A stretch of 64,000 nucleotides of DNA from Chiloscyllium plagiosum. Lineage: Eukaryota. The stretch is from the NCBI RefSeq assembly GCF_004010195.1, contig NC_057718.1, positions 80,665,187-80,729,186 on the forward strand. The letters are read 5' to 3'. The notes below the pieces were generated by a model, which ran no database searches, had not been told where the DNA came from, and saw nothing but the letters and a program-made list of their open reading frames with translations. Position 1 is the stretch's first letter; each line of letters begins with the position of its first letter. A program made the position numbers and the translations under genes. Shown piece by piece: positions 3,421 to 60,900 of this stretch.

Positions 3421-4560
3421 TGTTATGATTCCAAACAGGATATAAAAACTTATCAAGCTTCGAGGTGAGGAGGGATGAACTGGCTTTATTTGTTATTTAT
3501 CTAGCCATTTGGTTGCTTGCAATAATGTTAACTGAAATAGGATCCCTGCTTTTATGATGCCTTTCTTTTAGTCCAAATTTATGTTTTAAAAATTAGTGTG
3601 TTTAACCAGGCTTTCTTGAGTTAACATAAGAGTGAGTTTATGATTTGCTAAACACGAAAGGAAATGATGATGCAACAAATATAGACACAGGTTAGAAATG
3701 GAAGGTGAGTCCGATAAAAGTTAAAAGTTCAAAAGGTATGCATATTAATCTCTTAGTTCCATGAAAATTACATAGTTGGACATTGTGGTTGTTACTTTGG
3801 GGGATTCCAATAGCACTGATGTTGGTTGGTATGCAGTTGGATTTGAGATACTAAAATTTGCAGGTCAGTTGAAAGGTCTCTTTCCTGTTTCCTTTTGACA
3901 GTGGCTTCATTTGCTTTCTAGCTTTCAGCAAAGACCTTCTGTCTTGTCATACATGCACTACAGGTGACAAGACAGGATCTCTCTCTCTCTCTTTGCCAAA
4001 AAACAGAAAGCAAATGAAACCACAGTTGAAAAGAAATAGGACAACAACCTTTCAGCTGATATGCAAATCTAAATATCTTGAAACAGCAGTACACCTACCA
4101 ACATCAGTGCTACTGAGTATTACCAAAAGTAATAGCCATGTAACAGAAATGCAGGGATGACAAGCGTTTTTCTTAGCTGTGATCCTTGTAGCACATACCT
4201 TCATCCACTAGCACGCAAAGAACAGGACTGAAACTAGCAGTACGTGCGTATTCTGGAAAAAGGGAAAACACAAATATGTCTCTTAACCGGACTTCTCTCT
4301 TCTTTGCCATCATATTCACAGCCTAAAATAACTCACAAGATGTTACAGTTACACTTGCAGTTCATATCTCCATTTGAATTTCTTCTCTTTGTAGCTTCCT
4401 TGACATCCAACAGGTGTGGTATATGAGTCTCCCTCAAGGCTAGGGATAATCCACATAGGCTTTGTGGACAGTCATTGAATTATATTACTCGAAATTTACA
4501 TTTTCAATCATTCTTTGGCTTTGTCCTTTTTTAAAAAGACACATGTTGTAATTGAAAGGT
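3421..4560. mobile_element. Probable decayed solo LTR
   Basis: Starts TGTTATGA, is non-coding and resembles 26578-27190 in organisation; right end uncertain. Confidence 0.35.
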
Positions 4561-9924: not shown

Positions 9925-9960
9925 ATTTCTGAAGAAGGGCTTATGCCCGAAACGTCGATT
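9925..9960 (+). ncRNA. Minimal type I hammerhead ribozyme motif
   Basis: CTGAAGA (9929-9935), A, GGGC-TTAT-GCCC, GAAA (9949-9952), then CGTC with palindromic ACGT and a GUC cleavage triplet. Stem I is weak in this copy. Confidence 0.75.
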
Positions 9961-10057
9961 CTCCTGTTCCCTGGATGCTGCCTGACCTGCTGCGCTTTTC
10001 CAGCAACACATTTTCAGCTCTGATCTCCAGCATCTGCAGACCTCACTTTCTCCTCAA
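9928..10057 (+). mobile_element. 130-bp hammerhead-bearing Penelope-derived monomer (family A) with 13-bp TSD
   Basis: AGATTTGGTTATT occurs at 9915-9927 and 10058-10070; the element ends CTCCAGCATCTGCAGACCTCACTTTCTCCT. Confidence 0.88.
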
Positions 10058-12079: not shown

Positions 12080-13143
12080 AGTTTTGATAAGATTTGGAGC
12101 TCAGGTTGAGGTTCTGGATGTAGGTTTGCTCATTGAGCTGGAAGGTACATTTTCAGACGTTTCGTCAGCATAGTAGGTAACATCTTCAGTGAGCATCTGG
12201 ACAAAGTACTGCTGATGATACCTGTTTTCTATTTATATGTTTGGGTTTCTTTGGGTTGGTGATGTCATTTTCGGTTCTTTTTCTCAGAAGGTGGTAAATT
12301 GAGTCCAAGTCAATCTGTTTGTTGATCAGATTCCGGTTGGAATGCCATGCTTATAGGAATTCTCGTGCGTGTCTCTGTTTGGCTTGTCCTAGGATGGATG
12401 TGTTGTCCCAGTCGAAGTGGTGTCCTTCCTCATCCATATGTGAGGATACTAGTGAGAGAGGGTCATGTCGTTTTGTGGCTAGTTGATGTTCATGTATCCT
12501 GGTGGCTAGTTTTCTGCCTGTTTGTACAATGTAGTGTTTGTTACTGCCTTTGCATGGTATTTTGTAAATGACATTAGTTTTGCTCTGTGTAGGGTCTTTC
12601 AAGTTCATTAGCTGATGTTTTAGTGTTTTGGTGGGTTTGTGGGCTACCATGATGCCAAGGGGTCTGAGTAGTCTGGTAGTCATTTCCGAGATGTCTTTGA
12701 TGTAGGGGAGAGTGGCTAGGGTTTCTGGACGTGTTTTGTTGCTTGTTTGGGTTTGTTGCTGAGAAATCTGCAGACTGTGTTCATTGGGTACCCATTCTTT
12801 TTGAATACACTATATAGGTGATTTTCTTCTGCTTTGCATAGTTCCTCTGTGCTGCAGTGTGTGGTGGCTCGTTGGAATAAAGTTTTGATGCAGCTTCATT
12901 TGTGGATGTTGGGGTGATTGGTTCTGTAGTTCAATATTTGGCCAATATGTGTTTTCCTGAAGGTGCTGGTTTGAAGTTCCCCATTGGCTGTTCGCTCTAC
13001 TGCGACATTTAGGAAGGCAGTTTGTTGTTGTTTTCCTCCTCTTTGGTGAATTTTATGCCAGTAAGGGTATTATTGATGGTCTTGAAGATTTCCTCTAATT
13101 TGTTTCGTTCAGTGATGATGAAGGTGTCATCCATGTAGCGGAC
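12080..13143 (-). mobile_element. Penelope-like (Poseidon-type) retroelement: RT C-terminus, GIY-YIG endonuclease and pLTR
   Basis: RYMDDTFII...IKFTKEEENNNKLP (RT) and NVIYKIPCKGSNKHYIVQTGRKLATRIHEHQ (GIY-YIG); frameshifted. Confidence 0.92.
12153..12192 (-). ncRNA. Hammerhead ribozyme motif in the Penelope pLTR
   Basis: Reverse complement TCA-CTGAAGA-TGTTACCTACTATGCTGAC-GAAA-CGTC-TGA; TCA/TGA can form stem I, and stem II is imperfect. Confidence 0.72.
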
Positions 13144-13355
13144 CCTTGCAAGAACAGTATCGTCAAGCTCGTGGACCTTTGCCTTACCACTCACTTCACC
13201 TTCAACAACAAAACTTACAGACAAACTAATGGAACACCCATGGGATCTTTCATATCAAGGTTCGTGGCGGAGACAGTAATGCAGAGACTTGAACAAATAG
13301 CTCTGCCAACCATCCAACCCAAACTTTGGGTCCACTACGTGGATGACCCTTTCGT
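13144..13355 (+). mobile_element. Inverted upstream RT segment of the same Penelope element
   Basis: DLCLTTHFTFNNKTYRQTNGTPMGS...KLWVHYVDD (RT motifs B-C) lies on the opposite strand, abutting the minus-strand part. Confidence 0.88.
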
Positions 13356-14653: not shown

Positions 14654-14884
14654 AATGTGGAGGAGCTGATGTTAAGACTGGAGTGTACAAAGTTAAAAAT
14701 CACACAACACCAGGTTATAGTCCAACAGATTTATTTGGAAGCACTAGCTTTCACAGCACTGCTCCTTCATCAGGTAGCAGTTGTCACAACTCTGTCACAG
14801 CTACCTGAGGAAGGAGCAGTGCTCCGAAAGTGCTTCCAAATAAACCTGTTAGACTATAACCTGGTGTTGTGTGATTTTTAACTC
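14654..14884 (-). mobile_element. Fold-back hammerhead-bearing Penelope-derived element (family B) with 10-bp TSD
   Basis: Inverted arms at ~14691-14778 and ~14800-14883; cores at 14745-14773 (-) and 14805-14829 (+); GGATATGAAT at 14644-14653 and 14885-14894. Confidence 0.88.
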
Positions 14885-15663: not shown

Positions 15664-16257
15664 GAAATGGCTTAATAAGCCACTGAGTTGTATTCATCGT
15701 TATGAAGTCTCAACAAGGAAATGAAACTTGATGGCCCACCTAGATACATTGGAAAAGACAATGGCAGAAACAATTCTGAAAACCCTGCCCTATCCTCCTT
15801 ATTAACATATGGAGGCTTGTGTCAAAATTGGGAGAACTGACCAGTCAAGCAACAGCCTGATATGGTCATACTCAGAAAATCATACCTTCCATGCAATGTC
15901 CCAGATACCGCCATCTCTATTCCTGGATTGGTCCTGTACCACCAGCAGGACAGACACAGCAGAGATGGCTGCATTGTGGTATACAGTCATTGGGAGTCCT
16001 CAACATTGACTCAATGTTCCATGAAGTCTCATGGCTTCAACTTAAATATAGGTAAGGAAACTTTCGGCTGATTACCATGTACCACCCTCCCTTAGCTGAT
16101 AAATCAGTAGTCCTCCATGCTGAACAGCACTTGGAGGAAGCAATAAGCATGACAAGGGCATAAAATGAACTCTGTTGGGGATTTCAATAGCTCGGCAGCA
16201 GCAATACTGATTGGGCTAGTCAGGTCCTCAATGATGTAGCCGCCAGACTGTTTCTAT
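15664..16257 (+). repeat. 594-bp inverted duplicate of 33583-34176 (LINE 5' UTR/endonuclease segment)
   Basis: Colinear reverse complement of equal length with about 15 substitutions counted by eye; ORFs 15862-16071 (+) and 33769-33978 (-) are near-identical. Confidence 0.92.
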
Positions 16258-31344: not shown

Positions 31345-34290
31345 TATTCACTCAAATAATGGCTATCCCTAATCGCCCTTGAGAAGGTGGTGGTAAGCTG
31401 CCTTCTTGGACCATTGCAGTCCACGTTCTTGTAATGACCACGCAGAGGGAATTCCAGGATTTTGACTTAGCAGCAGTGAAGGAATGGCAGTATGTTTCAA
31501 ACTCATGATGGTGAGTGGTTGGAAAGATAATTGCACGAAGTGGTGTTCCCATATAACTGCTGCCCTTGTCCTTCAAGATGTGAATTTGGTAGGTGCTGCA
31601 GTTAATTTCTGTGGTGCATATTGAATATATTATACACTGCTGCTACTACATATTGATGACGGAGGGAGTAAATGTCTGTGAATGTGGTGCTAATTAAGTG
31701 GACTGCTTTGTTCTAGATGCTTTCAAACTTTTGAGTGTTGTTGAAATTGCAGTCACCCAGGCATGTGGGGAGTATTCCATCACACACCTGACTTGTGCTT
31801 TTTAGATGGTGGACAGCCTTTGGTGAGTCAGGAGGTGAGTTACTCACTGCAGTATTCCTAGCCTCTCACCTGCTCTTCTTGCCATTGTTTTTATGAGTCC
31901 AGTTAAGTTTCTGATTAATAGTAACCACAAGAATATTGATAGTGGAAGGTTATGTGGTGGTGGTGGTGCCATTGAATGTCAAGGGACAGTGGTTATATTG
32001 CTTCATCTTGGAAATGGTCATTGTTTGGCATTTGTGTGGTGCAAATGTTACTTTCCATTTGTCAGCACAAGCTTGGATATTGTCCAGCTTTTGTTGCATT
32101 TGAACATAGACTGCTTTAGTATCAGAAAAGTTGTGAATGGTGCTGAGTATTGTACAGTCATCACTAAACATGTGCCCCCCTTCTGACCTTATGAAGGAGG
32201 GAAGGTCATTAATGAAGCAGCTGATTGTTGTTGGGTCTCGGACAGTACCCTAAGAAACTCCTGCAGAGATATATTGGAGCTGAGATAACTGACTTCCAAC
32301 AACCACAACAGTCTTCCTATGTGCCAGGTACAACTCCAGCCTGTAGACTGTTTTTCCCCAATACCTGTTGATTCCAATTTTACTCAGGATCCCCGATGCC
32401 ACATGAATATGGCCTTGATGTCAAAGGCTGTCACTCTCACTTCACCTCTGGAATTCATGTTTGAGACAAGGCTGTAATGAGATCAGGAGCTGAGTGGAGC
32501 TGGTGGAATCCAAACTGGGCACAAATGATTCAGTTATTGCCGAGCAGGTGATGCTTGATAGCACTGTTGATGACACCTTTCATCATTTTACCGATAATTA
32601 AGAGTATACTGATGAGGTGGTAATTGGCCAGGTTGGGTTTCTCCTACTTTTCCTGGGCAACTTTTAAAATTGTTGAATTTATGACAATGTTGTAATTGTA
32701 CTGGCAAAGCTTGGCTATCTGAGCGGCAAATTCTGGAACACAAGTCTTCAGTACAAATACCGGAATGTTGTCAGAGCCCATAATATTTTGCAGTATCTAG
32801 TGTGTCTAGATATCACATTGTATGAATTAAATTGGCTGATGACTGGTATCTGTGATGCTGGGAACCACTGAAGAAGTCTGAGATGGATCATTCATTTATT
32901 GCGTCTTGCTGAAGATTGCAAAGAATTCTTTTGCCTTATCTTTTGCATTGATGTGTTGGGCTTTTCCATCATTGAGGATAGGGATATTGTGGAGCCTGTC
33001 TTGCAGTGAGTGTTTTAATTGTCCATCATCATTTATGACTGGACATCGCAGAACTGCAGAGCTTATATATGATCTGTTGGTTGGGAGTTCAGTTAGCTCT
33101 ATCTATCACTTACTACTCATATTGTTCAGCGTGCAAGTAGTCCTGTTTGGTAACTTCACCAAGTTGGTGCCTCAGTTTTAGGTGTACCTGATCCTGCTCC
33201 TCACATGTCACCCTGCACTGTCTATTGAAGCAAGGTTGACCCCTGGCTTGATGGTAATGGTTGGGTAACGAGTGGGGGATATGCCAGGCCATGAGATTGC
33301 AAATTGTGCTGGAGTGCAATTCTGCTGCTGTTGAATAGCGCCTCATGGATACCCAGTCTTGAGTTGCTAGATTTGTTCAATGTATGTCCCATTTAACACA
33401 GTGATTGTGACACACAACACAGTGGAGATTATTCTCAATGTGAATGCGGGACTTTGCCTCCACAAGGACTGTGTAATGATCATTCTGATCAATAGTGTCA
33501 TAGCCAGATGCATCTGCAACCAGCAGATTGGTAAGAATGATGTCAAGTACAGTTTTCTCTCTTGTTGGTTCCCTCACCTACTATAGAAACAGTCTGGCGG
33601 CTACATCATTGAGGACCTGACTAGCCCAATCAGTATTGCTGCTGCCGAGCTATTGAAATCCCCAACAGAGTTCATTTTATGCCCATGTCATGCTTATTGC
33701 TTCCTCCAAGTGCTGTTCAGCATGGAGGACTACTGATTTACCAGCTGAGGGAGAGTGGTACATGGTAATCAGCAGGAAGTTTCTTTACCTATATTTAAGT
33801 TGAAGCCATGAGACTTCATGGAACATTGAGTCAATGTTGAGGACTCACAATGACTGTATACTACAAGGCAGCCACCTCTGCTGTGTCTGTCCTGCTGGTG
33901 GTACAGGACCAATCCAGGAATAGAGATGGCGGTATCTGGGACATTGCGCGGAAGGTATGATTTTCTGAGTATGACCATATCAGGCTGTTGCTTGACTGGT
34001 CAGTTCTCCCAATTTTGACACAAGCCTCCATATATTAATAAGGAGGATAGGGCAGGGTTTTCAGAATTGTTTCTGCCATTGTCTTTTCCAATGTATCTAG
34101 GTGGGCCATCAAGTTTCATTTCCTTGTTGAGACTTCATAACGATGAATACAACTCAGTGGCTTATTAAGCCATTTCAGAGGGCAGTTGGGAGTCAACCAC
34201 ATTGCTGTAGATCTGGAGTTACATGTAGCCCAGACCAGGTGAGGATGGCAGATTTCTTTCCCTGAAGGATATTAGTGAACTATTAGTAAC
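31345..34290 (-). mobile_element. Near full-length decayed CR1/L2-superclade LINE (APE endonuclease plus RT)
   Basis: EPTREKTVLDIILTN...DHYTV (APE end) and MFSDDCT...LDNIQACADKWKVTFAPHKCQTMTI (RT); 3' end AATAAAAAAA on the minus strand. Confidence 0.85.
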
Positions 34291-49466: not shown

Positions 49467-50821
49467 CCGACTTCTCAAGCTTTTCCATCCAGCCTTTCCC
49501 TGTGATCATCATCTCTGATTTCCCACCACACATGCTGTACTCGTTCCACAATTTCTCTGTTACTTCTATTATATGTTTACTCCCCATTTCCTTCCAGAAT
49601 GTCTTCACACTGTCAAATTACCTCTATTTCAGTCACTCTCACTTGACCTGTCTGTCGGCAGTTGCAGACTTAAACTGCTGAGTTCCTATCTGATGAGTAG
49701 CCAGCTTTCCAAAGTGGATGTTTCAAAAGTCAGGAAACCTAAAGCAACAAATCAAAACATGCTTTATAATGCCATTCAAACCAATTTTCAATTACCTGAT
49801 CGTAAATTCACCTTCCTATTTCACATGCCTTGGTGAATCTCAAGATTAATCTGTTATGAATGAGAAAATGTGAAGCTTTTCCAATTTAACATATAGTGAC
49901 TTATGACATGGCAGAAATTGATGCATCTTGCACTCATATGCAAATATTTTTCAAACTTGTGACATGTACTTTATTTTGAACCACAGCATTTAAACATTGT
50001 GTAATTTTAAATACAGAATTGTAACACTGTGCTGCTTCATGTTCTTTTCTCAGGCATAGAATTTCTGATCAAAGCATTGAATTGACCTTAAACCAATTTG
50101 ATTTTTTTTTCCATCATTTATTTGTACTTGAAGGATTAAATTGTCCTGAAATTCCCTTGATGGTTTTTGTAATTTAGGCAGAATGTTATCAGGATTCTTG
50201 GAGCATTTTTATTGTTTTATTTTCTTTCTGAGAGTTTTACTGATTTTCCACTGACGTTCAGCAATAGATCAGGAGAATGTTTGTTGAACTTTAGGGTATA
50301 AAGGTAGTTTCAAGCATGTGATCTACCTTAGGATTCATATTTCTAAATGCAAAATGTGCTCTGTTCACTGTCTGATTATATTTGTTTAGAATAAGCCTTG
50401 ATGGAATAATCAAACATATTGAATCATCCATTTTGATTTTTCAATTTCTAAAGAGCATAATGCAGCAATGCAATTTCTTAGAAACCTTGCAGATTCAATT
50501 GTGAAAAATATATTTGACCTATTGACTTCGTGGTAATCTTTCAGTAACTAAGGAAAATAATAAATATCTAAATGCCAGATCTTGCTGGCATAAACAAGTT
50601 ACTTGGAGGTAAGCTTGCACTACCAATCACAAGTAAAAGCTTTTCATCTAATTTACATCTCCCTTTATAACAATCCTTTAGAATCATTACTCTTGTAAGA
50701 ACTTACAATAGAGCTGAATCTTACATTTCTTTGGATAGGTACATGTTACGTAGGGGTTTTTGGAGGGTCTTACATTCTAGAACCTAACAGGTTTACTCAC
50801 CATGTCTTACTAAACTCACTT

Positions 50822-50946
50822 TCTGAAGAAGGGCTTATGCCCAAAACGTCGGTTCTTCTGTTCCTTGGATGCTGCCTGACCTGCTGCGCTTTTCCAGCAA
50901 CACATTTTCAGCTCTGATCTCCAGCATCTGCAGTCTTCAATTTCTC
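50822..50946 (+). mobile_element. Family A hammerhead monomer with 7-bp TSD
   Basis: Near-identical to 9928-10057; core CTGAAGAAGGGCTTATGCCC-AAAA-CGTC; CTCACTT at 50815-50821 and 50947-50953. Confidence 0.88.
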
Positions 50947-51169
50947 CTCACTTCATTAACTGCCTACCTCTTCCTTAGGGTGCCCTGTGCACAATTCCAG
51001 CCCCATCTTATCATACGCTGTTATCAGAATAACTCACTAATACTGTGATATGCCAGAATTAGTCAGCATCCTTTTGTCCAAGAAATCTTTAGAAGACTTG
51101 TGTACCGAGATAAGCACTGTAAGTCAGGAGTTGCCATGTATTGTTCATGATGTTTGCTCCAGACATAGC

Positions 51170-56077: not shown

Positions 56078-56935
56078 CAGAACTAAAGTCTATGAACCTC
56101 TGGCGTAGGTGTCCTTTTCTTCCAGGTGGGTGAGGGCCAATGGAGGTTGGTGGAAATGGTATCATCTGTTGAGCTCAACATTAGAGAGGTGCTGGAAAAG
56201 CACAGCAGGTCAGGCAGCATCCGAGGACCAGGAAAATTGACGTTTCGGGCAAAAGTCCTACATCAGAAATGTCATTCAGATTCCTGATGAAGGGCTTTTG
56301 CCTGAAACGTTGATTTTCCTACTCCTCGGATGCTGCCTGACCTGCTATGCTTTTCCAGTACCACTCTAATCTTGACTCTAATCTCCAGCATCTGCAGTAC
56401 CCACTTCTGCATATCATCTGTTGAGCTGTTAGGTCGATATGCGAACTGCAGGGTGTGCAGGGGACAGCAGAGTCTTAATAAGCCTCATCATGAGCCTCTC
56501 TAAGCACTTCATGATGATGGGTGTCAGCGCAGAAGGGCAGTAGTCATTCAGACAGGATGCAGAAGACTTCTTCAGTACGGGAACGATGGTAGTGACCTTG
56601 AAGCACATTGGAACTGTGGCGCAGCTCAGGGAGATGTTGAAAATGTCTTTGAAAACTTCTGCAGTATGTTAGAGTGTCCTCTGAGGACTCTGCCAGGGAT
56701 ATTTTCCGGTCCAGCAACCTTATGTGGCTTTCCTCACATTGGCCGTGGTAAGACACAGCACCTGGTCATCGGATGGGGGTGTGTGCTTCCTCACTGCCAC
56801 ATCATTTTGTGCCTCAAACTGTGCATAAAAGTTGTTCAACTCATCCAGGAGGGAGGCATCATGAGCACAAGCAGGTGATGCTGTTCTGTGGTTGGTGATG
56901 ACCTGAATGCCTTTCCACATGATCCATCCATCAAG
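56078..56935 (-). mobile_element. Rex1/Babar LINE (outer copy), upstream part
   Basis: MWKGIQVIT...LLDELNNFYAQFE; FIDFSS joins in frame to AFNT at 53127 once the insert is removed. Confidence 0.88.
56176..56411 (+). mobile_element. Fold-back hammerhead-bearing Penelope-derived element with 16-bp TSD
   Basis: Inverted arms at ~56180-56270 and ~56280-56370; core CTGATGA-A-GGGC-TTTT-GCCT-GAAA-CGTT at 56284-56311; TATCATCTGTTGAGCT at 56160-56175 and 56412-56427. Confidence 0.9.
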
Positions 56936-57370: not shown

Positions 57371-57587
57371 TTTTTCTTGACCAAAGCCTCAAATTCTCTA
57401 GTCATCCAGCATTCCCTACACCCACTAGCTTTGCCCTTCACACTAATAGGAACATACTGACTCTGAATGTTTGTTATTTCATTATCCCACTTTGCAACCA
57501 CCCCTTTTACTTGCACATTGTCTCTCCAAATCCAGTTTTGAAAATTCTTGCTTCATACCATCAAAATTGGCTTTACTCCAATTCAGA
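57371..57587 (-). repeat. 217-bp inverted copy of 59043-59259
   Basis: I saw no mismatch against the reverse complement; both copies give the identical peptide MQVKGVVAKWDNEITNIQSQYVP... Confidence 0.93.
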
Positions 57588-57744
57588 TATTCACTGCAAT
57601 TCACTGCAAATATTCCCCATTCCCAACACTGGTAATCCAGTGAAGTGAAATATTCTCATTCTAAATGCATGATAAATTAGGTTGCCTGGTAACAAAGGTG
57701 AACAGGACATTAACAAGAATAGAAACTGCTGCATAAACATTTTT

Positions 57745-57989: not shown

Positions 57990-60900
57990 GGAAAGCCTAA
58001 GATTCTGAAGAGAGAATGTAAGAAATTAGGCAGGAGGTTAAGACAGTAGTTCCTCAAGGATAGCAATATCTGGACAACTACCAGTGCCACATGCAAGTGA
58101 GAGTAGGAACAGGAGGATAGAGCAGATGAATGCATGACTGAGGAACTGGTGCAGGGGGCTGGGATTCACATTTTTGAATCATTGGAATCTCTTATGGGAC
58201 AGAAGTGACCTGTTTCAGAAGGATGTTTTGCACCTGAATTGGAAGGGGACCAATATCCTAGGGAGGAGATTTGCTAGTGTTATTCAAGAGGGTTTAAACA
58301 TGTAAGTGGAAGGCAGCCCAAAGAGATAAAGACAGGTCTGAGGCTGGTGCAGTTGCAATGAGGAGCAAATCAAATAGTCTGGGCAGGGCAAGAGCAAGGC
58401 AAAGAATGAGGTAAGAATGATAAATTAAACTGCATTTATTTCAATGCAAGAGGCCTGACAGGTAAGACATTTTTGGGATATCATTGCTGTTACAGAAATG
58501 TGGCTCAGGGAAGGGCAGAACTGGCACCTTAATGTTCCAGGGTATAGATACGACAGAACGATAGAAAGGGGGACAAGGGAGGAGGAGAAGTGTTGTTTTT
58601 GCTTAGGGATAATATGATGGCTGTACTTAGGGAGGATATTCTTGAGAGTAGGTCCACTGAAGTTATTTGGGTGGACTGAAAAATAAGAAAGCGATAATCA
58701 TCTTCTTGCGGTTCTCCTATAGACCACCGAATAGTCAGCAGGAAATTGAGACCTCAGATATCTGTAAGAATGATAGGGTTGTAATGGTAGGGGATTTTAA
58801 CTTTCCAAACATAGACTGGAACTGCATCGTGTTAAGGGCTTAGATAGAGAAGAATTTGTTAATATTTAGTATGTGGATGAGCCTACTTGAGAAGGAGTGA
58901 AATTTGACCTTCTCTTGGGAAATAAGGCAGGACAAGAGACCAAGGTGTCTGTGGGGGAGCACTTTTTGGGGCCTATGATCATAATTCTATTAGTTTTAAA
59001 ATAGTAATGGAAAAGGATAGACCTGATCTATAGCATTAAAGTTCTGAATTGGAGTAAAGCCAATTTTGATGGTATGAAGCAAGAATTTTCAAAACTGGAT
59101 TTGGAGAGACAATGTGCAAGTAAAAGGGGTGGTTGCAAAGTGGGATAATGAAATAACAAACATTCAGAGTCAGTATGTTCCTATTAGTGTGAAGGGCAAA
59201 GCTAGTGGGTGTAGGGAATGCTGGATGACTAGAGAATTTGAGGCTTTGGTCAAGAAAAAGGAGGAGAATGGCCGTGCAGACTGCTTGGATTCAGTTAATT
59301 CCTTGAGGAGTATAAGGACGGTGGAAGTAGAATTGAGGGAAATCAGGAGGATAAAAGGGTACATAAAATTTCTTTGGCAAATGGGGTTATGAAGCTTCCA
59401 TAGACATCCTACAAGTACATTAAGATCAACAAGGCTGTCTATGTGTGGAATTGCAGGAGATGGAGACACTGAACAAGTATTTTGCATCAGTATTTTGTGG
59501 AGAAGGATATGGAAGCAAGAGCACGTAGGGAAATAAACAGTGATTTCGTGAAAAGAATCCATATTACAACTGAGAAGGGGCTAGATGTCATAAAATACAT
59601 AAAGATAGATAATCCCTGGAACCTGATCAGGTGTTTCCCAGAACTTTCTGGGAAGCTAGGGAAGAGATTGCTGATCCTCTTGCTGAGATATTTGCATCAC
59701 CAACAGCCACAGGTGATGTGCCAGAAGACTGGAGATTGGCTAATGTGGTGCCATTTTTAAGGAAGTGACAAGGAAAAGCCAAGGAATTACAGAACAGTGT
59801 ACCTTACGTCAGCAGTGTGTAGGTTGTTGGAGAAGATTCTGAGGGTTAGCCTTTACATGCATTTGGAAAGGCAAGGACAAATTAGGGATAATCAGCATGG
59901 TATTGTGCATGGGAAATCATGACTCACTAACTTCACTGAAATTTTTTAATACATGTTAAAAAATGATTGTTGAAGGCAGAGCGGTGGATGTTGTGTATAT
60001 GGACTTCGGCAAAGTATTTGATAGGGTTCTGCATGGTAGATAGGTTGCAAGTTTAGATCACATGGAATCCAAGGGGAGCTAGCCATTTCGATACAAAATT
60101 GGCTAGAAGGTAGAAGGAGAAAGTGAGGACTGCAGATGCTGGAGATCAGAGCTGAAAATATGAAGCTGGAAAAGCGCAGCAGATCAGGCAGCATCGAAGG
60201 ACCAGGAGAATCGACGTTTCGGGCATGAACCCTTCTTCAGGAATGAGGAGAGTGTGCCAAGCAGGCTAAGATATCTTAGCCTGCTTGGCACACTCTCCTC
60301 ATTCCTGAAGAAGGACTCATACCTGAAACGTCGATTCTCCTGCTCCTTAGAAGGTAGAAGACAGAGTATAGTGGTGGGCAGTTGATTTTTAAGTTGAACG
60401 CTTGTGACCAGCAGTGTGCTACAAGGATTGGTGCTGGGTCCACGACTTTTCATCATTTATATAAATGTTTTGGATGTGAATATAGGAGGTATGGTTAGTA
60501 AGATTGCAGATGACATCAAAATTAGTGGCGTGGTAGACAACAAAGAAGGTTATCTCAGAGTGCAATAGAACCTTGATCAGATGGGCCAGTGGGCTGAGGA
60601 ATGGCAGATGGAGTTTAATGTCGATGAATGAGAGATGTTGCATTTTAGTAAGGAAAATGAGTTATTGGTAGGGACTTGGGGAGTGTTGCTAAACAAAGAG
60701 ACCGAGGGGTGCAGGTGCATAGTTCCTTGAAAGTGGTGTTGCAAGTAGACATAATGATGAAGAAGGCATTTGGCATGCTTGTTTTTATTGGTTAGTGTGG
60801 GGGTTAAGGAGTTGGGACATCATGTTATGGCCATACAGGACATTGATGAGGCTATTTTTAGGATACTGTGTTCAATTCTGGTCTCCCTGCTATAGGAAGA

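Follow-up and report, generated by a model that had tools for sequence, protein, structure and literature searches.

The window analysed here, a stretch of 64,000 nucleotides of Chiloscyllium plagiosum DNA, contains an insertion of 232 nt overall, formed by two arms of unequal length (158 versus about 76 nt) that meet head to head inside an old LINE. The features of the insertion, of its host and of the related copies in the window are the following:

59901..60600 (+), host, the decayed reverse transcriptase (RT) region of a CR1-like LINE split by the insertion; this is the stretch tested, and the LINE extends beyond it
60104..60116 (+), left target site duplication (TSD), 13 bp, whose last 2 nt overlap the terminal bases of the element
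60115..60272 (-), long arm, the 158-nt 3' end module of the repeat, in the ribozyme sense, stopping at the common 3' end of the family
60213..60240 (-), minimal type I hammerhead with a CUGAAGA core, an extra A, a 4-bp stem II and GAAAC-GUC
60231..60314 (unstranded), perfect 84-bp palindrome with no spacer and no CpG, equal to the family majority everywhere
60272..60273 (unstranded), central TA common to both arms, a 2-nt self-complementary overlap at the edge of the T run of the parent
60273..60348 (+), short arm, an inverted copy of the first ~76 nt, without the last ~82 nt of the long arm
60305..60332 (+), second hammerhead motif, in which three transitions (60315, 60321, 60324) disrupt stem II
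60348..60360 (+), right TSD, 13 bp, sharing its first base with the short arm
9928..10054 (+), monomer from this family that begins with the hammerhead core
50820..50948 (+), another such monomer, likewise beginning with the hammerhead core
56177..56410 (unstranded), second head-to-head copy, from a related subfamily, with a 16-bp TSD and a ~9-nt centre

The perfect palindrome that the original prediction had centred on 60272/60273 is present, with arms of 42 + 42 and a spacer of 0, and it is the sole one in the window for arms of at least 14 and spacers of 0-20. The imperfect pairing proposed beyond it also exists, with 34 extra pairs that reach 60197/60348 and include 5 mismatches. A repeat finder gives the same hairpin as 79 nt at 92%, because it extends into the TSD. 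The computed DNA hairpin energy is about -81 to -84 kcal/mol. Four of the five mismatches between the arms are transitions within or beside stem II (60224-60230 and 60315-60324), a possible hot spot. The short arm of the 56177 copy carries the same G-to-A change as the stem II region of these arms.

The insertion had been placed in a CR1 element and between 13-bp TSD, and both statements hold. The duplication TAGAAGGTAGAAG is found at both ends (13/13 identical), and the excision of the insert plus one TSD copy restores a CR1-like LINE. Four further LINE copies of the window align with this empty site right across the junction (397 nt, 77% and 1 gap for the best of them), the flanks of the insertion translate into RT-like sequence and the Pfam match of a sister copy of the host is RVT_1. 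By recognition, the host is taken here to be CR1. The TSD and the clean empty site thus agree with the proposal of a retrotransposed, TSD-flanked unit. No host exon was recognised among 13 scanned ORFs (two LINE domains, eleven with nothing), a scan that short exons would escape. Contigs from 4 of the 24 listed runs, representing three organisms, were aligned to 59980-60480 at 88% likeness. A contig of organism C spans 60000-60138 with 3 differences and passes the TSD by 22 nt, short of the 31-letter bridging rule; it suggests that the insertion is shared and old.

The minus-strand hammerhead had been described as having an intact core. The core and stem II (three G-C pairs and one U-G) are as stated, but the word intact overstates the ribozyme, given its poor helix I. 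This helix is made of 2 pairs, a U-U mismatch and 1 further pair, and falls short of 4-5 bp, with 3 of the first 8 positions pairing in both arms. Helix III is palindromic and loopless, and the cut is predicted between 60213 and 60212. The long arm carries the whole set that defines minimal hammerheads of Penelope-like elements (PLE), namely the core, the extra base after position 9, G10.1-C11.1 and the palindromic 15.2-16.2. The plus-strand motif has a broken stem II, as anticipated. In the long arm of the 56177-56410 copy helix I is better, with 5 of the first 6 positions paired. At the gathering score, Rfam gave 0 matches in the 64-kb window, in a search that minimal hammerheads escape. Single minimal motifs are inactive and dimers weakly active according to the accessible part of PMC4209133. 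With two hammerheads on opposite strands, both of the dimer type, the locus is unlikely to self-cleave and, as judged from its sequence, an active ribozyme at 60104-60360 is unlikely.

A transcript across the insert would, in the modelled fold, form a ~76-bp duplex and would be unable to assemble a dimeric hammerhead in cis. The original prediction expected such a duplex to bury the ribozyme. The duplex itself is strongly predicted (-157 / -155 kcal/mol, z ~ -20), but the sequestration matters little because the sense hammerhead is single on each strand and of a type that needs a dimer. Folded by itself, the long arm is no more stable than shuffled sequences (z -0.08). The runs listed for the region include no RNA run, which says nothing about expression.

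The contigs place the centre of the palindrome within a longer family sequence. In 4/4 runs, 59-75 contigs per run track the long arm to 60273 and then enter one common purine-rich sequence; the agreement with this shared parent sequence beyond 60273 is 0.79-0.85. Since the contigs run past the centre into a shared sequence, the centre is family sequence of a longer parent, and the link between the centre and a longer family member, put forward beforehand, is thereby upheld. The ~32 nt upstream of the core that were said to be missing from the monomers are absent from both intact monomers of the window. Contig pieces on the short arm begin at 60272 and the left-arm matches reach 60273, so that the central TA belongs to both arms. 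Over 60230-60314 every alternative letter in the family contigs stays below 10%, and the inner arms therefore correspond to the family majority. At the opposite end the element exits at 60115 into unrelated flanks, in 732-1499 contigs per run, which defines the shared 3' end. Read in the ribozyme sense, the parent has at 60272-60280 a tract of pyrimidines that closes with TTAG a little inside the centre, a candidate splice-acceptor-like sequence. The part of PMC4209133 available places an intron end beside helix I in the Drosophila Penelope.

The search for an autonomous parent was successful in part: the centre runs into a longer parent, but no RT/endonuclease ORF was found. A protein search with the 41-residue monomer frame, against longer proteins only, gave 1 candidate and none at E 0.001, which is weak evidence. 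The exact 22-nt family motif had 0 matches in metagenome contigs and 0 in viral contigs. As the autonomous parent was not found, the assignment to PLE rests on motif and anatomy. None of the 32 contig pieces listed, of about 187,700, spans the exact centre; a high-copy palindrome is a place where contigs from short reads should break, and the missing spanning piece consequently proves nothing.

The repeat that carries the hammerhead is very abundant, and three fragments of it are found in the window in addition to the copies listed above. In the second head-to-head copy (56177-56410) the short arm lacks 37 nt, a tail-sized piece, and the arms differ at 12/94 positions, with changes right up to the centre. 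This copy sits in another LINE, and the small duplicated motif at its centre resembles slippage or templated insertion. The comparison of centres among copies gave a varied picture, in which 14 of the 15 joints listed (310 in total) pass from the antisense to the sense arm elsewhere; these joints come from paralogues, most have fewer than 30 letters on the shorter side and their breakpoints are biased by the mutations of the 60231-60314 copy itself. Head-to-head joints are present in 4/4 runs, and in this family they are frequent and varied. One of them (60237 -> 60322, with ATG between, in 2 contigs) may be read as a fold-back with a 3-bp stem and a 5-nt loop.

The window contains other repeats with comparable parts. 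A decayed Penelope-like fragment of another family, at about 12100-13200 (-), retains the RT motif YMDD and remnants of a GIY-YIG-like ORF. The RT-GIY-YIG remnants are followed by the same hammerhead layout, with a minimal hammerhead of its own at 12189. The GIY-YIG-like ORF has no Pfam match at E 0.01; among the members of its Atlas look-alikes, at 0.95, 19-55% have HTH_animal and GIY-YIG. Further repeat families contribute hammerhead-like cores at 1678 (-), 14773 (-), 14805 (+) and 8491 (-), and the cores at 14773 and 14805 are back to back, ~30 nt apart, probably in a head-to-head unit. Two inverted pairs, 15664-16257 / 33583-34176 (594 nt, 98%) and 57371-57600 / 59030-59259 (230 nt, 98%), may be young repeats or local inverted duplications, and a third pair within 3846-4078 has 89 nt at 76% with a 55-nt spacer.

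The element is very probably the hammerhead-bearing end of a Penelope-like element. The insertion is best explained, with moderate confidence, as a dead, non-coding product of target-primed reverse transcription of this end. Staggered nicks 13 nt apart in the old LINE created two 3' ends, as the TSD shows. One target end would have primed a cDNA at the usual 3' end of the family, giving rise to the long arm, and the varied joints among copies suggest that the mirror arm was built within the same insertion event. For the mirror arm itself, a route with two cDNAs has about an even chance of being correct. The second target end may have primed another cDNA 82 nt further in, and both cDNAs may have stopped, or been trimmed back, at one common point, 32 nt upstream of the core, where the U run has its edge. 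The two 3' ends could then have paired at the self-complementary TA, each cDNA serving as template for the other, from which exact symmetry would follow. The available part of PMC11167929 describes a PLE protein that nicks and extends both target strands and starts inside the RNA, and that is predicted to be a dimer. In the accessible text of PMC8557442, the generation of inverted structures by PLE is called still undefined.

The original prediction had taken the zero spacer as a sign of fold-back synthesis or of hairpin opening during integration. The argument for fold-back is weakened, since the terminal 3' base has no way to pair with the base next to it, and a zero spacer would thus speak against a simple fold-back; the exact symmetry seems better suited to two cDNAs annealed at TA. 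Self-priming by fold-back, in which the end of the first cDNA, close to the TA, would have looped back as a primer and the strand, after ~76 nt of copying, would have been joined to the other target end, is nevertheless a possible origin, although the less probable one. It is the published reading of PLE junction palindromes, as far as the accessible part of PMC3846280 goes, and a single pass over the template suffices. The paralogous joint 60237/60322, and possibly that at 60243/60325, resemble short-stem fold-backs, and the former looks like a textbook case, which counts against the two-cDNA route. On the other hand, the parent offers no stem at this position, so that an untemplated base or a later loss of the loop would be needed. 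At the far junction, the target end agrees by eye with the family sequence just past the short arm at 5/9 bases, with 2 possible wobbles, a point for the two-cDNA route that is equally compatible with end joining of a folded-back strand. Annealing of two cDNAs also has to face that a central self-complementary dinucleotide arises by chance in ~1 in 4 cases and that 5' ends do not accumulate visibly at 60273, where the loose ends are 79-85% parent-like. In addition, the short arm lacks 82 nt, while two described start sites would lead one to expect a tail of 30-40 nt.

A palindrome that already existed in the donor, as the 5' inverted pLTR of a longer element, would make the insert a truncated read-through retrocopy. 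Full PLE copies often bear an adjacent inverted pLTR, according to the available parts of PMC8557442 and PMC3846280, but the centre at 60272/60273 is crossed by none of the 15 joints or 32 pieces listed, the joints vary, and the RT would need to unwind a 76-bp RNA duplex; this origin is improbable. The same lack of a spanning piece among the 32 listed (of about 187,700) would be expected from an assembly or polishing artefact, that is, a chimeric fold-back read or inner arms made identical by polishing, and the best indexed run contains 0.53 of the words of the region. The arms, however, have 5 differences, the 13-bp TSD restores the LINE exactly, the contig of organism C covers 60000-60138 and head-to-head joints occur in 4/4 runs, all of which make an artefact very improbable.

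The identity of the inner arms could have a cause of its own. Homogenisation of the arms after insertion, by intra-palindrome conversion or hairpin-templated repair, would add to the preferred origin by annealed cDNAs; it would preserve identity across the inner 42 bp and may also have removed a spacer. Mismatches number 0 in the inner 42 pairs and 5 in the outer 34 (p = 0.015, or 0.034 without the CpG change; values uncorrected for the selection of the locus), and zero changes in 84 bp have p 0.003-0.03 at assumed rates of 6.5-4%. The spacer-bearing 56177-56410 dimer, changed up to its centre, points the same way. However, this locus was picked for its perfection from a very abundant family, in which a 1-3% event is expected somewhere, and the inner 84 bp are devoid of CpG. 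No change shared by both arms is seen against the family majority, as random conversion would often leave, and the stem II region in which four of the five mismatches cluster may mutate faster. Given the selection for perfection, the absence of inner CpG and the absence of mirrored derived changes, chance stays adequate and conversion is rather unlikely. A literature search without most subscription papers found nothing on arm conversion in elements of this size.

The broader proposal, that zero-spacer PLE palindromes are fossils of both-strand priming subsequently kept identical by germ-line arm conversion, is doubtful. If true, these palindromes would be what remains in vivo of the extension of both strands observed in vitro, and a genome with very many dated copies would make priming of both strands and conversion testable by counting. 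The single locus is of little weight, being a dead copy, among many, of a repeat whose architecture is already described. It is useful as a data point, since the way in which PLE produce inversions is recorded in the joints of thousands of stubs like it. Surveying the centres could tell fold-back apart from priming of both strands, and copies of known age with zero spacer could gauge the survival of short perfect palindromes in a vertebrate genome. No paper on this hammerhead-bearing family was found in a literature search without most subscription journals or supplements.

The comparisons that follow refer to the accessible sections of the papers cited. In PLE, head-to-head inverted pLTR, junction palindromes and shorter inverted copies are described (PMC3846280), an adjacent inverted truncated copy is common (PMC8557442) and dual minimal hammerheads occur on opposite strands (PMC4209133). 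The present insert shows the corresponding traits: a terminal-repeat hammerhead ~100 nt before the 3' end, an inverted copy with a junction palindrome and a TSD of variable length (13 bp here, 16 bp at 56177-56410). It resembles the insertion units of EN+ PLE (Arkhipova et al. 2013, PMC3846280; Craig et al. 2021, PMC8557442) in the head-to-head arrangement, the shorter inverted copy, the junction palindrome and the TSD of ~8-16 bp. The optional arm tail of 30-40 nt has a 37-nt counterpart in the second dimer, while the piece missing from the short arm of the 60231-60314 copy has 82 nt and is more than tail-sized. The insert also differs in having no ORF within its whole 232 nt and in its perfect, spacer-free 84 bp, where the palindromes reported in these sections have 18 bp and a nearly perfect 38 bp.

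With the minimal type I hammerheads of metazoan PLE (Cervera and de la Pena 2014, PMC4209133) the long-arm motif shares the CUGANGA core, the extra base between 9 and 10.1, the G10.1-C11.1 pair, the palindromic 15.2-16.2 and the lack of loop 3; solo motifs and opposite-strand pairs occur in both. The differences here are a stem II of only 4 bp, a helix I below the described strength of 4-5 bp and a distance of ~65 bp between the two motifs, not 100-700 bp. Non-LTR retrozymes (bioRxiv 10.64898/2026.07.22.740005) are likewise non-coding, with a type I hammerhead and a probable PLE origin. The assignment to a non-LTR retrozyme was rejected, as the accessible description requires head-to-tail units with at least 2 same-strand hammerheads, whereas the motifs here are on opposite strands.

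A MITE or DNA transposon was rejected as well, with arms of 158 versus 76, monomers that have no mirror arm and TSD of different lengths. In the twin priming of LINE-1, both target ends prime cDNA, the products meet at short microhomology and the TSD is kept. The priming, joint and TSD proposed here are alike; on the other hand, LINE-1 joins adjacent and mostly non-overlapping parts of its RNA, whereas the same 76 nt are present twice in this insert. The head-to-head layout is thus already described for PLE, and what is unusual at this locus is the exactly symmetric, mutation-free centre alone.
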